NCBI GenBank assembly: GCA_951406725.2
Contig: OX597827.1
Location: 46,004,001-46,068,000, forward strand
Length of the DNA stretch: 64,000 nt
Direction: 5' to 3'
Source: Octopus vulgaris
Lineage: Eukaryota
In this document: positions 5,598 to 61,874 of the stretch, piece by piece
Position numbering within the stretch: position 1 is the first letter of the stretch
Layout: each line of letters starts with the position of its first letter
Notes under the pieces: model-generated
The model's database searches: none
Told to the model about the DNA's origin: nothing
Seen by the model: the letters and a program-made list of their open reading frames with translations, nothing else
Made by a program: the position numbers and the translations under genes

Positions 5598-5896
<299 letters not shown>

Positions 5897-6851
5897 TGAG
5901 AGAAGTTGGTGTGTGAAACCACGTGGTTGAATATATAGAAAATAGTAAAAAGTGAAAAAACTTTGTACAACATACAAGTGTTTCAGCAAAATGCTGAAAC
6001 AATGACATAACAGCTGAAGAAAAATTATGCAATCGTTCACTTTACCTCATTGTCATTCACTAAATCTTATCGGCGTCCCACAATAAATGCAACAGTAGAT
6101 ACTAAAGCTCCGAATATACGTGTAACACTTTACAGAGCTTTTTTTCTTTTTTACACACACAAACATGCATGCAGAGGGCATGGCTGTGTGGGCGTGTACA
6201 TGCTTTACAATCACATTTCTGGATGGGACTCTATTATGTGGCGCTGTGCTGATCAATAATACCTCATGAAACTTTATCACAGGAAACTTCAACAGCTTGT
6301 CGTATACGTATACCTATGTGTACATGTATAAATGTGTGTGTGTGTGAGTTTCTTTCTGCATGTCTTCACACTGACACTGTTCATGCACTGCTAATAGGGT
6401 TTGTATAGCAGCTTTATGGGTCAATGGTACACACATACACACACACAAACAAGGACACAAACGCATGCACACATAAGGATACACATTTCAGGAGAACAGA
6501 ACAGAGTAAGTGGAGCAAGAATACGCATGAAAACAGAAAGTGTTGCTGAAGAGGTCAAAGATGTGTGACGAAAGATTTCTGGACATGAGGTAAAATAATA
6601 AAACAAGAACAGTTATAAAAGAGTGAAGAAAAAATATATTGTGGGTGTGTTTATTTGGCAAAAAAAAACAAAAAAAAACGACTATCCCGAAATACAACAA
6701 TACAGATAAAAATAATTATATGAAAATGAGTAAGAGCTGGCATCAGCATAGTTATCTGAGTGAGTATTGCCTCAAGAAGTTTTGCCCAATGTGTGCCAGC
6801 ACAGAAAAAACAGACATGATCTATATAATCACACACACACACATAGGATCC

Positions 6852-8699: not shown

Positions 8700-9267
8700 G
8701 TATTGCGGTACAGTTTAACCAAATTCGGGTAGCTTATAGTCGTGATTCATATCGAGCCCGTCTGAATATTAGCGCGCGTCTACGATGAGTCTACGATTTT
8801 AAAAATAATTTAACATCATTTTTTATTCCATTTTAATGCATAATTTTTCGTGTGTCGATGGCAGCGGAGTTGGCGTCCACGCTCACATCTGCACCTGTGG
8901 GGAAGGGAGTGTAAGGAAATCAACGTCGTAATGCGTTGTCAAGGAGACCAGTGTTCTTTTAGAACAACGACTTCATGGCTTCAAGACACCAAAACAGAAA
9001 TGGCTAAGAAAGCGTCTACATGAGTCTACGATTTAAAAAAAAATTTTACCATCGTTTTTTTTCCATTTTAATGCATTTTTTCGCTATTGTATAAGGGAAG
9101 TAACTCTCTAAAAATGTCTACGATGAGTCAACGATTTTAAAAAAAATTTACCATCATATTTTTTCCATTTTTAATGCATTTTTTGCTATTTTTTGGCTAT
9201 AACTCTCTAAAAATGCTTATATAGTTATTTCCCTTACAAACCCGAGCAACGCCGGGCGATACTGCTA

Positions 9268-20916: not shown

Positions 20917-20962
<46 letters not shown>

Positions 20963-20975
20963 ATTATATAGAAGG

Positions 20976-21026
20976 AGCTTCTACAGGACTAGTACTGTTT
21001 CATTCAAGAGAAATCTTCAGGAAGCT
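20976..21026 (-). ncRNA. Type I hammerhead ribozyme (mirror copy)
   Basis: Exact reverse complement of 22394-22444. Confidence 0.8.
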
Positions 21027-21410
21027 ATTTAACAAGAATTGTATTAGCATTTATACATTTAGGCAGGTTTAAAGGAGTGGTGGTGGGGGACTTTTTGGGG
21101 GTAGGCATAGCGCAAAATATCATACTTGGGGGAGTGGTCAAGGAGTCAGTGGTAAGTTAGATGAAAGAATAGATAAATAAAAAAATAAAAATAAAAAAAT
21201 AAAAAAATAAAAAATAAAATAAAAAAAATAAAAAAATAAAAAAATAAAAAAATTAAAATATATAAAAAAATAAAAAAATAAAAAATATATATAAAAAATA
21301 TATATATAAAAAATATATATATAAAAAAAGGGGGATAGAGTTATAGGTAAATAAGGAGATTCTCACTTATACCTATACACACATGTATACGTATCTACAC
21401 ACACATATAT

Positions 21411-21455
<45 letters not shown>

Positions 21456-22393
21456 CACACATACATACATATCTACATACACACATACATACACCCGCCC
21501 ACATATACAAATTTATACACATGCACATGCATATACCTGTGTACACATACACACACGTATATATGCATACACTCACTCCCATGCATGCACGCATACACAC
21601 ATGTATATATATACCCACGACCACACATACATATATACACATATATGTACATATGTATATATGTACATATGTACATATGTACATATGTACATATGTGTAT
21701 GTGGGTGTATGTATATATAGGTGTAAAAATATGTGTATATAGGGAACTAGGTGTGTTGTGTGTGCATGAGTGTATGTGCGTATGAATATATATTTTTCTG
21801 TGTATATATGTATGTGTGGTCGTGGGTATATATATACATGTGTGTATGCGTGCATGCATGGGAGTGAGTGTATGCATATATACGTGTGTGTATGTGTACA
21901 CAGGTATATGCATGTGCATGTGTATAAATTTGTATATGTGGGCGGGTGTATGTATGTGTGTATGTAGATATGTATGTATGTGTGTGTGTGTGTGTGTGTA
22001 TATGCATATATATATATATATATATGTGTATATGTGTATATATGTGTGTGTAGATACGTATACATGTGTGTATAGGTATAAGTGAGAATCTCCTTATTTA
22101 CCTATAACTCTATCCCCCCTTTTTTTATATATATATTTTTTATATATATATTTTTTATATAAATTTTTTATTTTTTTATTTTTTTATATTTTTTTATTTT
22201 TTTATTTTTTTATTTTATTTTTTTATTTTATTATTTTTTTATTTATCTATTCTTTCATCTAACTTACCACTGACTCCTTGACCACTCCCCCAAGTATGAT
22301 ATTTTGCGCTATGCCTACCCCCAAAAAAGTCCCCCACCACCACTCCTTTAAACCTGCCTAAATGTATAAATGCTAATACAATTCTTGTTAAAT

Positions 22394-22444
22394 AGCTTCC
22401 TGAAGATTTCTCTTGAATGAAACAGTACTAGTCCTGTAGAAGCT
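22394..22444 (+). ncRNA. Type I hammerhead ribozyme, canonical core
   Basis: agcttc-CUGAAGA(22400-22406)-t ttc tctt gaa t-GAAA(22419-22422)-cag tactagtc ctg-UA-gaagct; predicted cleavage GUA after 22438. Confidence 0.8.
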
Positions 22445-22527
22445 CCTTCTATATAATAAATTAATTTTACTCTGCTATGTATTGAGTACCTTACTTACTG
22501 TGGTTAACCCCGAATCAACCCGGGACC

Positions 22528-22577
<50 letters not shown>

Positions 22578-50306: not shown

Positions 50307-50955
50307 AGGAAGTCTCAAATACAGAATAGCTGTAAAAACAGCTTAGAAGATGAGGTAAATAGCCTTAGAAAATGGTAAAAAGTGGTTGCAGGAAGTCACT
50401 ACAGGGAATCGAACCCTGTACCTAAGTTGCTTAGCTCAATGGATTAGAGTGCTCAGTAGAAATTTGAAAGGTATGAGGTTCAATTCTCTGTAGTAACCTA
50501 TTGGCAACTTTTTGCTGTTTTCTGAGACTATTTACCTCATCTTCTCAGCTCTTTTCACAGCAATTCTGCACTTGAAACTTCCTTTATTTTCTGGTATATA
50601 AGCACATACTGTTTACATAAATATATGTTTATATAAATATAAGTTGTTGTTGTTCATGGTATCTCACTATACAGCATAGCATGGGCAAACTGCCTTCTCC
50701 TGTAACTCTGAGTTAAGCAATATCCTGTGAGTGGAATTTAGTGGATAGAAATTGTGAGAGCATATTGCGTATGTGTGTGAGTGTGGTTGTGTGTGTGAGT
50801 GTGGTTGTGTGTGTGTGTTTATATCCATCTTATGTTTACTGGTCTGTCAGGTCATGTTCTCCTATGTCATAGCGTGACTTGGTGATTCAGTGAATTTAGA
50901 TTGCTAAAATAAGTGTTAGACTGAAACAAGTACTTCATAAGTATCATGTGTTATG
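50307..50955. repeat. Inverted duplicate of 61255-61864
   Basis: Long collinear reverse-complement match covering MITE, unique and old-SINE sequence. Confidence 0.9.
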
Positions 50956-51922: not shown

Positions 51923-52280
51923 AATATATATTTATATATTTTATCAATTTCTCATTTCATTAAAATTTTCTTTCAATTGAGCATTCTGCATTTTTACAAT
52001 TTTTCATTGCTTATCATTTCTCCACGTGCGGTCAACACAACCCCACCATTTATTGATCTATATATATATATATATATAGCAATAATAATTCTCTAAAAGA
52101 GATATAGACAGTAACTGCTCGATAACATAAGGGACTAAAGCCATCTGAATATGGCTAGGGACAGGGCAGGGTGGTGGGGGTGTTACTGTTGCATTTAGCC
52201 CCAGGCGAACATCGATGTCACCAGAAAGGCCCGACACCGTCACGGTGTCCTTAACCTGCAAAGGGAGGTAATTCCCCGAT

Positions 52281-52354
52281 GAAGCGGAAACCACACACGG
52301 ACCATGGTTTCAAGGTGTATTGCCTATCGTCGGCGTGTGGTAGGCTTCCGCTTC
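52281..52354 (-). ncRNA. Type I hammerhead ribozyme (U4C core variant), copy 1
   Basis: Reverse complement of 52899-52972; predicted cleavage GUC between 52300 and 52299. Confidence 0.8.
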
Positions 52355-52640
52355 CTCGACGAATTCTCACTCTGCAGGATATTCATATATAGATTTTCAA
52401 GCAAAATACATTTGCTGATTTCGAAAATCTGTTCGAAAGCAATAATAATTCTCTAAAAGAGATATAGACAGTAACTGCTCGATAACATAAGGGACTAAAG
52501 CCATCTGAATATGGCTAGGGACAGGGCAGGGTGGTGGGGGTGTTACTGTTGCATTTAGCCCCAGGCGAACATCGACGTCACCAGAAAGGCCCGACACCGT
52601 CACGGTGTCCTTAACCTGCAAAGGGAGGTAATTCCCCGAT

Positions 52641-52714
52641 GAAGCGGAAACCACACACGGACCATGGTTTCAAGGTGTATTGCCTATCGTCGGCGTGTGG
52701 TAGGCTTCCGCTTC
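52641..52714 (-). ncRNA. Type I hammerhead ribozyme, copy 2
   Basis: Identical to copy 1, 360 bp downstream; cleavage between 52660 and 52659. Confidence 0.8.
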
Positions 52715-52898
52715 CTCGACGAATTCTCACTCTGCAGGATATTCATATATAGATTTTCAAGCAAAATACATTTAGCAGTTACTGTCTATATCTCTTTTAG
52801 AGAATTATTATTGCTTTCGAACAGATTTTCGAAATCAGCAAATGTATTTTGCTTGAAAATCTATATATGAATATCCTGCAGAGTGAGAATTCGTCGAG

Positions 52899-52972
52899 GA
52901 AGCGGAAGCCTACCACACGCCGACGATAGGCAATACACCTTGAAACCATGGTCCGTGTGTGGTTTCCGCTTC
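52899..52972 (+). ncRNA. Type I hammerhead ribozyme, copy 3
   Basis: gaagcggaagcc-tac-cacacg-CCGACGA(52920-52926)-t agg caataca cct t-GAAA(52942-52945)-ccatgg-UC-cgtgtg-t-ggtttccgcttc; cleavage after 52953. Confidence 0.8.
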
Positions 52973-53120
52973 ATCGGGGAATTACCTCCCTTTGCAGGTT
53001 AAGGACACCGTGACGGTGTCGGGCCTTTCTGGTGACGTCGATGTTCGCCTGGGGCTAAATGCAACAGTAACACCCCCACCACCCTGCCCTGTCCCTAGCC
53101 ATATTCAGATGGCTTTAGTC

Positions 53121-53165
<45 letters not shown>

Positions 53166-60484: not shown

Positions 60485-61577
60485 GAACACAGAAATAACC
60501 AGGGAGAGAAAATAAAAAAGGTTTTGTGGCTAGCAATCTATCATATATATATATATATCATCATCATCATCATCGTTTAACGTCAGTTATATATATATAT
60601 GTGCATGCTGGTTTCTTTTGAGTTTTCATCTACCAAATCCACTCACAAAGCTGTGTTTAGCTCAGAGTCATGTAGTAAAACTGAAGAACTGAATCAGAAA
60701 CAATATGATAGAAAGGCAAACTCTTTTCAACCACACAGTTATAAATAAGTTTCAATTGACTGATCTTCTTACAATTATCTCCCTTGTTTGTTGACTTTTT
60801 AGATTTTACACACTTCTGGTGAGAGGTTTTGTTTAGTAATTGCTATGAGATCGAAATGGCTGATGTTTTCCTTGAACGGTAGAGACAAGAAGAGAGCTCA
60901 AATGAAAACTTTGGTGTTTTGGAGAGAAAAGAATGGGAAGGAGGAAGAAGTATTCTGTCTGGTGCCTGAGGAGACAAGCAATCTGGGTAACGAGAGGAGG
61001 AGAGATATGTTAGTTGGATGAGTCAGAGTGAAGATGAAGCATAAGACAACATGACTGTTGATCAGAGGTTTGTGAGTGCTAATAAACAACCCTATATTAA
61101 TAAGTGTTAATGAACAACCCTATAGTAATAAGTCAGGTATTCTATATAGTGTAGGTATTGTGGAGCTATGCATCTTTTTTTTTTTACATTATTTTGTGAT
61201 TGCAGTCATCGAAATGGTCATGCTGGAGCACTACTTTCAAGGCTCTCAGTCAATCATAACACATGATACTTATGAAGTACTTGTTTCAGTCTAACATTTA
61301 TTTTAGCAATCTAAATTCACTGAATCATCAAGTCACGCTGTGACATAGGAGAACATGACCTGACACACCAGTGAGCATAAGATGGATATAAACACACATA
61401 CACAATATGCTCTCACAATTTCTATCCACTAAATTCCACTCGCAGGATATTGCTTAACTCAAGAGTTACAGGAGAAGGCAGTTTGCCCATGCTATGCTGT
61501 ATAGTGAGATACCATGAACAACAACAACTTATATTTATATAAACATATTTTTATGTAAACAGTATGTGCTTATATAC

Positions 61578-61874
61578 CAGAAAATAAAGGAAGTTTCAAG
61601 TGCAGAATAGCTGTGGAAAGAACTTAGAAGAAGAGGTAAACACTCCCAAAAAACAGCAAACAGTTGCCAGTAAGTTACTACAGAGAATTGAACCCCATAC
61701 CTTTTAAATTCCTGCTGAGCACTCTAATCCATTAAACTAAGTAACTGAGGTACAGGGTTCGATTCCCTGTAGTAACTTCCTGCATCCACTTTTTACTATC
61801 TTCTAAGGCTATTTACCTGATCTTTTAAGCTGTTTTTACAGCTATTCTGTATTTAAGACTTCCTTTATTTTCTG
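61578..61874. mobile_element. Palindromic MITE-like element with tRNA-like core (61674-61745, minus)
   Basis: Ends cagaaaataaaggaagt / acttcctttattttctg; arms over 100 bp; core has A-box- and B-box-like motifs and a gttact/agtaac acceptor-like stem. Confidence 0.65.

Follow-up and report, generated by a model that had tools for sequence, protein, structure and literature searches.

Both the retrozyme class and its link to Penelope-like elements (PLEs) are already in print. Non-autonomous PLE derivatives such as Chlamydomonas MRC1 are known (PMC3846280; PMC8557442), and retrozymes have been proposed to be non-autonomous PLE passengers on the basis of co-occurrence and pLTR homology in Xenopus, in a preprint whose accessible text covers no molluscs and proposes local amplification of the arrays (Li, Clavereau and Pollet, 2026; 10.64898/2026.07.22.740005). 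Papers on retrozymes put PLEs forward as the probable movers; a 2020 review states that the repeats show no motif from which the partner could be deduced (PMC7761336). That PLEs have a circular RNA intermediate was put forward as a hypothesis in 2014 (PMC4209133), and the origin of the tandem and inverted structures of PLEs has been called an unsolved question of mechanism for which an in vitro system is required (Craig, 2021; PMC8557442). The main text of the survey of metazoan retrozymes (Cervera and de la Pena, 2020; PMC7229834) makes no reference to inverted copies, target sites, octopus or cephalopods, and the accessible text of the Xenopus preprint makes no mention of a tail or target site. 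The main texts of these retrozyme papers hold no description of inverted, tailed insertions, and the papers listed for retrozymes and hammerheads in octopus or cephalopods describe neither a cephalopod retrozyme nor the family reported here.

The window analysed is a stretch of 64,000 nucleotides from Octopus vulgaris (contig OX597827.1, positions 46,004,001 to 46,068,000). It contains an element at 52078-53126 whose family we call family A (Table 1). Its units are numbered on the minus strand, such that u1 is window position 52659 (the first base past the proposed cut) and u360 is 52300. The tandem stretch is 696 nt long with a single mismatch at a lag of 360 (52216 T, 52576 C). The earlier note, made from the letters of this DNA alone, was therefore right about the period and the single differing base, but what it took for two units measures 1.93; likewise the extent that it gave, 52079-53126, agrees with the end of the inverted arm but not with the start of the tandem stretch, which we place at 52078. 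Directly adjoining this stretch is an inverted 353-nt copy of 52127-52479, and both outer ends lie in (TA)n. The inversion and the fixed outer ends, of which no use had been made, are the most informative feature of the element. As had been claimed, it holds no credible ORF (the longest starting with ATG encode 35 aa and 50 aa, on the ribozyme strand and its complement respectively) and is strongly self-complementary: the circular fold of the 360-nt unit has an energy of -120.6 kcal/mol with 64% of the bases paired (z = -6.3 against 100 dinucleotide shuffles). GC is 0.445 over 52001-53000. The window gave no tblastn match to two local PLE proteins, and the element has no RT/GIY-YIG ORF; it is not an autonomous PLE.

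Table 1. Features of the family A element, in window coordinates.
Feature	Position	Strand	Details
Arm 1	52078..52773	-	1.93 tandem units; RNA-sense 3' end u222 (long, tail-bearing) on (TA)n; 5'-truncated at u247
Arm 2, inverted	52774..53126	+	u181 via cleavage site to u173 (short end; family mode u176-178), on (TA)n
Exact 360-nt monomer	52300..52659	-	between the two predicted cleavage sites; predicted circle
Variant type I hammerhead 1	52639..52716	-	C3 52693; predicted cut 52660/52659; extended stem I; U4C core; U-U at 10.1/11.1; palindromic stem III
Variant type I hammerhead 2	52279..52356	-	C3 52333; predicted cut 52300/52299
Hammerhead copy 3, inverted arm	52897..52974	+	C3 52920; predicted cut 52953/52954
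'Tail' of 44-46 nt	52078..52123	-	u177-u222, between the two fixed end positions
Conserved 3' module	52078..52190	-	u110-u222; helix ACAGUAAC/GUUACUGU around AGCCAU/AUGGCU hairpin, plus short end; candidate RT-recognition element
Head-to-head inversion junction	52773..52774	.	u247/u181; no microhomology in window copy
(TA)n target, left remnant	52060..52077	.	
(TA)n target, right remnant	53127..53162	.	

Two further inverted features were seen in the window. At 20955-22533 there is an inverted, TA-flanked remnant of PLE type, from the same family as locus L096, with ends 65 nt apart and arms that each hold a CUGAAGA hammerhead (cores near 21020 on the minus and 22400 on the plus strand). A 403-nt inverted pair (50307-50709 and 61462-61864; 93% alike, 10.7 kb apart) lies either side of the element and probably represents two copies of one dispersed repeat.

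We searched the octopus's own genome (2.8 Gb, 227 contigs). The best 40 of 919 candidates contained at least 215 matches to family A, nearly all 98-100% identical, and on contigs C1-C3 93 core matches fall in 35 loci, from which we extrapolate about 150 loci genome-wide. The exact 34-nt hammerhead core with C4 is present in 402 copies (200 forward, 202 reverse) as against none in a reversed-sequence control, so that the core is not a chance match. Over 61 loci the copies diverge from the majority base by 0.71%, which indicates that family A is young and has spread with its U4C core. Several retrozyme hallmarks are present: a non-coding tandem unit of 360 bp, GC below about 50%, self-pairing and dispersal in many copies. 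These data uphold the proposal of a recently active, multi-copy, non-coding, hammerhead-bearing tandem family; the lack of other genomic copies, named by the earlier note as grounds for abandoning it, is not what the genome contains. Families B (core UUGACGA, stem III CUAUAG, 373 exact matches of a 30-mer) and C (canonical CUGAUGA core in the same frame, stem III CUCGAG, copies about 88-92% alike) are older sisters of family A. A further sister copy, L237, has stem III CCUAGG, and a degenerate tail motif common to these sisters gave 2,559 exact matches.

Other arrays were also observed. In the ribozyme-free 119-bp array at L236 (220-1000), (TA)n and the final ~95 nt of a unit from a sister family recur in six to seven copies, through either DNA-level duplication or repeated re-priming, and L133-L136 form a DNA-level array in a related family with a tandem period of about 1380 bp. 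At L032 (1493-5410) a 3.9-kb arm is composed of units that switch among several haplotypes, from template switching, conversion or assembly; such a mosaic is unobtainable from one circle. The same locus contains (5850-5906) a 58-nt piece that is 76% like u104-161 of the 3' module; it belongs to a different repeat, presumably Helitron-like, which has a GC hairpin at its end and whose upstream part resembles the tandem unit at window 9014-9215.

The hammerhead parts listed in the earlier note, namely a 6-bp stem I, loop II CAAUACA, the palindrome ACCAUGGU and a GUC site, are all found on the minus strand, and the predicted cuts do lie exactly 360 nt apart. Its description of a full type I hammerhead in each unit holds for the fold, which is present in every unit of family A, but not for the core. 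Where the canonical core is CUGANGA (C3 U4 G5 A6 N7 G8 A9), family A reads CCGACGA (C3-C4-G5-A6-C7-G8-A9), a U4C substitution, and stem II has 3 bp only and opens with U10.1-U11.1. G12 A13 A14 A15.1 and U16.1-H17 are in place (GAAA...GUC), as are helices I-III around the core with helix I open. The window ribozyme, with C4, is filed as a variant-core hammerhead and not a canonical type I because the strict core consensus fails; for this reason, and with circles that are predicted ones, the element is classed as a variant retrozyme. C4 occurs in 139/139 passes of the parsed family A loci, and the 34-nt core with U4 is found only once in the genome. U4C is reported to cut activity in vitro considerably, with viroid infectivity still possible, and is cited there for a viroid variant only; natural hammerheads with a U-U at this place in stem II are known (PMC3088659). 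With U4C fixed, family A may cut poorly. An Rfam search, at the gathering score and at E<=10, gave no hammerhead match; the miRNA families that did match did so because of the long inversion.

Other parts of the ribozyme were compared between the families. A 3-nt bulge occupies the same place in all three (UAC in A and B, UGU in C), and loop II has 7 nt ending in CA in family A and reads CAAAUA or CAAUUA in family B; in the UAC bulge and this loop the earlier note saw a resemblance to the Sm-alpha tertiary contact. In ViennaRNA, whose model is without tertiary contacts, the active fold of family A exceeds the minimum by 8.8 kcal/mol for the circle and by 14.9 kcal/mol for the double hammerhead; the active fold of family B units is similar, at 6.4 kcal/mol. 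In an alignment of nine copies from families A, B and C, which effectively comprises three lineages and takes its structure from family A, both partners have changed in 8 of 44 named pairs, among them pairs in each of the helices I-III and in the 3' helix. Pairing cells amount to 87% of this alignment, compared with 31-40% for slid controls. As far as sequence comparison can, this covariation supports the ribozyme and the 3' helix, although it is not decisive. The palindrome of stem III is retained with different letters in the sister families (CCAUGG, CUAUAG, CUCGAG, CCUAGG), and such compensatory stem changes argue for a ribozyme under selection in these retrozyme families, which we think is probably active in vivo. 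We dropped a possible covariation of U4C with stem III that would maintain an 'off' fold: the pairing has a probability of ~0.001 in the circle, and L237 combines U4 with G16.3.

To describe the insertions, 65 loci were parsed: the 40 top-scoring ones, which are biased to long arms, 23 others on contigs C1-C3, one on contig C4, together with the U4 copy. In 50 of these, two arms stand head-to-head with their RNA 3' ends facing outward; the other 15 are single arms. A short end (bin u164-192) is paired with a long end (bin u205-224) in 43 of the two-armed loci; the others comprise three with two short ends, none with two long ends and four with an irregular end. Within the less biased set alone the pairing is seen in 16/18. 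By hand count, 40 of 100 outer ends fall exactly at u178 and 36 exactly at u222, and TA repeats adjoin 88 of them. L062, at a non-TA site, has a 12-bp target duplication, and family B has its ends at homologous positions in non-TA flanks. Since the ends are kept at non-TA sites, they belong to the element, which also disposes of ends inherited via read-through (UA)n tails; the family B ends further show that the real short end is ~u176, its final two letters coinciding with the target sequence by chance. That inserts end at the cleavage site was likewise considered and rejected, as none of the 100 outer ends lies there and the excess of inner ends, which are otherwise scattered, is non-significant (8/100 within 16 nt of the site, p = 0.077). 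Arms reach 9.5-10.8 units, the longest being 10.8 and the median about 1.1-1.5; the 100 arms together make 180 crossings of the cleavage site, and 44 arms cross it twice or more. Leaving out the 9/50 junctions with gaps or insertions, overlaps span 0-8 nt, with microhomology of at least 2 nt at 19/41 (15% in simulations) and no overlap at 11/41.

Taken together, an inverted 5'-truncated copy, a one-sided tail, a microsatellite target and an optional target-site duplication make up the footprint of PLE insertion. This footprint is found at 43/50 two-armed loci, in support of the Penelope-like mobilisation that had been suggested, and we conclude with considerable confidence that family A is of the non-LTR retrozyme type and that a PLE moves it. 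Near-identical palindromic repeats are difficult to assemble and some arms do show indel noise, which would suit an assembly or read fold-back artefact; such an origin of the tandem and inverted structure is nonetheless scarcely credible given fifty loci with different asymmetric junctions and the same two outer ends, the target duplication at one of them, and the same layout in the older sister families and in autonomous PLEs. LINEs also target TA microsatellites and produce 5' inversions, and no PLE partner was identified among the loci examined, both of which would suit a LINE-type reverse transcriptase as mover with inversions arising by twin priming as in L1. Twin priming, however, yields two parts of one transcript that do not overlap and have only one 3' end between them, whereas both arms here have a fixed 3' end and overlap over whole units. 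The autonomous elements of this genome with the same layout encode RT and GIY-YIG, and we regard a LINE mover as very unlikely.

We compared the haplotypes of the two arms at 61/65 loci (L053, L068, L210 and L218, with rearranged alignments, were dropped). In 31 of 33 informative loci the two arms carry the same bases at three diagnostic sites, where a fraction of 0.37 is expected at random, and the two exceptions differ at one site each. Variants confined to at most two loci recur in both arms (75C at L216, 102A at L232, 128G at L224, 200C at L230), and rare variants are found in every pass at L224 (4/4), L230 (11/11) and L069 (6/6). The shared haplotypes and shared rare variants imply that both arms copy one template. 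A direct explanation of the shared haplotype would be that only one arm is copied from RNA, the inverted arm being made by fold-back self-priming on the first cDNA or an antisense template, after which the endonuclease resolves the hairpin with a 45-nt stagger; self-priming has been put forward for PLE inversions (PMC3846280). The short-end arm fits inside the long-end arm in 25/43 loci, the window included, as this would require, and at L230 extra variants missing from the outer passes are common to the innermost passes of the two arms, a mirrored pattern that looks like copying or conversion between arms. But the short-end arm is the longer one in 17/43 loci, and in 8/43 neither arm fits inside the other, so that neither could be copied from its partner. 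Permuted arms give 10.3 +/- 2.4 such loci; the rate is thus that of independent arms, and neither arm is a simple copy of the other. With the short or absent junction overlaps in addition, the simple form of cDNA fold-back was rejected as the source of arm 2 and self-priming as a whole appears improbable. The arms instead look like two independent reverse transcripts of one template, each arm being, in terms of DNA, a cDNA joined to a 3' end of the target. Their start sites lie inside and just beyond the conserved helix u110-117/u184-191; the minimum fold computed from a single sequence favours a different pairing. Read most simply, the target primed reverse transcription twice on a single endless template, from two internal starts.

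Whether such a template is a circle can be set against a linear one. The same PLE machinery could act on an uncleaved or partly cleaved linear multimer, the ribozyme being crippled by U4C and no circle being needed, and long arrays would then be inherited from long donors or grown by unequal crossover. U4C is fixed in family A and lowers activity in vitro (PMC3088659), 1/9 Xenopus dimers were cleaved in a study that proposes local tandem amplification (10.64898/2026.07.22.740005), the L032 mosaic and the DNA-level arrays L236 and L133-L136 fit, and inner ends are slightly more frequent than expected near the cleavage site. Against this, a linear multimer with 5' truncation lets arrays only shrink, yet arms reach lengths of many units; single loci carry rare variants in every pass (L069, L230); family A arrays are flank-free with a period of one monomer, unlike the DNA-level arrays; and compensatory change maintains the palindromic stem III. 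We consider the linear multimer unlikely and a circular template reasonably probable.

On balance we favour a model in which family A is a non-autonomous retrozyme parasitic on a PLE, with both strands of the target priming on one circular RNA. Tandem units would be transcribed, and two hammerheads, whose fold is conserved, would pair via the palindromic stem III and release the 360-nt monomer, slowly owing to U4C. A host ligase would close the monomer into a circle; this may be RtcB, by analogy with mussel and axolotl retrozymes. A PLE RT/GIY-YIG complex would then bind the 3' module and cut both strands of (TA)n, one 3'-OH priming at u222 and the other at u176-178 of the same RNA; the end positions, polarity and shared haplotype on which this step is based are observed. 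Each cDNA would roll round the circle past the cleavage site and stop at random, and the two cDNA ends would be fused, often via 2-8 nt of microhomology. The architecture that would result, a head-to-head insert with ends differing by the 45-nt tail, is the one seen.

PLE reverse transcriptases are sister to telomerase RT. More tentatively, the circle may be used like a telomerase RNA, as a helix-bounded module with two internal template starts 45 nt apart from which the PLE RT extends both strands of the cut (TA)n. If true, this would explain the Penelope 'tail' and the inverted pseudo-LTR in general, and would provide a 360-nt minimal substrate for reconstituting PLE insertion. In families that are active at present, a ribozyme weakened by U4C, which would leave the circle intact, may also be favoured.

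Elements of this genome that encode RT and GIY-YIG share the inverted, tailed layout, with tails of 31, 38, ~65 and ~70 nt. In the search for a partner, 150 of 6136 GIY-YIG candidates were scored, with Naiad (N-terminal endonuclease) and other PLE clades outside the scope. No pLTR or 3' module sequence was shared with family A in 30 GIY-YIG, 18 extended PLE and 30 further-subfamily loci, and the 45-nt tail was absent from the PLE 3' ends examined. The sole direct link between retrozyme and PLE is a single chimera at L174 (884-1740), where a 5'-truncated old PLE RT fragment is fused in the same sense to a family C arm between TA tracts, as a template switch would give. The PLE subfamily involved has no 3' sequence in common with the retrozyme and no 45-nt tail.

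Several PLEs themselves carry hammerheads. A young RT+GIY-YIG element (L116 1250-4490, L234 237-2960 and L059 2620-3940; 99.5% amino-acid identity between copies) has inverted arms, a 31-nt tail and a U4C hammerhead (CCGAAGA, stem III GUAC), and one copy lies ~50 nt from a family A insert; it is a candidate partner, though without sequence in common with family A. Its older relative L073 has a CUGAAGA core. Another PLE family (L100-L115), probably active, has an open 781-aa RT+GIY-YIG frame in 16/148 GIY-YIG matches and a 38-nt tail. PLE hammerheads of the form CCGACGA with stem III CUCAGAG or CUCUGAG were seen in the flanks of L074, L156, L174 and L215, and an old PLE subfamily (L181-L209) has an apparent U3/A8 core and a CCGG palindrome.

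Of 24 sequencing runs listed, 20 contained at least half the words; no run is recorded as RNA. Each of three runs from different studies that are putatively RNA, their type being guessed, gave one closed 390-nt contig (360 + 30) at a depth of 8-22; a DNA run gave 1,399 fragments instead. These contigs could come from a circle, a tandem transcript or contaminating DNA alike. Closed contigs, together with a small, highly paired, hammerhead-bearing unit, are what a viroid-like agent would give, replicating from RNA to RNA and leaving genomic copies as by-products. The contig haplotypes nevertheless match genomic ones, with one extra change in the organism B run and at this low depth, and the opposite strand is without a hammerhead: the plus strand of 52078-52773 has none with a stem I of at least 3 bp. 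A CCGAUGA..GAAAC look-alike at 52276 was rejected as an opposite-strand ribozyme, having no stem I and no conservation. Not all viroid-like RNAs carry ribozymes in both polarities, so this absence is non-decisive, but with no sign of RNA-to-RNA replication the 'viroid-like' label of the earlier note is not sustained and we judge such an agent highly improbable.

With ~150 near-identical insertions, the ends, haplotypes and arm lengths constrain both the identity of the mover and the origin of PLE structures. The fixed internal starts, the independent arms copied from the same template and the U4C core make it possible to test the question of PLE insertion on an RNA of 360 nt. The hammerhead core of this spreading family is off the consensus; Rfam missed it, and strict-core searches would reject it.

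Family A resembles the metazoan non-LTR retrozymes of coral, mussel (~350-390 bp) and axolotl (330/350 bp) in having a non-coding tandem unit of a few hundred bp with a type I hammerhead fold in each, strong self-pairing, about 45% GC and co-occurrence with PLEs, and the axolotl Amex2 ribozyme likewise has U-U at the base of stem II (PMC7229834). It differs from those described there in its U4C core, two-armed inverted inserts and fixed ends; cleavage and circles have been demonstrated for them, whereas we infer both for family A. Its helix I, of 6 bp with a long extension, is of the canonical retrozyme type and not minimal, and palindromic helix III for dimeric cleavage, core variants and a tolerated U10.1-U11.1 are all known from natural hammerheads. 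Compared with the Xenopus retrozymes (10.64898/2026.07.22.740005), no pLTR homology was found among the PLE loci examined, yet the insertion footprint is of PLE type. With endonuclease-containing (EN+) PLEs family A shares the head-to-head inverted 5'-truncated copy, a tail at one end only, a preference for (TA)n, microhomology at the joins and an optional target duplication of 8-12 bp (PMC3846280; PMC8557442). Unlike these, it is ORF-free and has a tail of 44-46 nt as against the reported 30-40, and its arms are concatemers of a short unit, which makes the origin of the arms testable.
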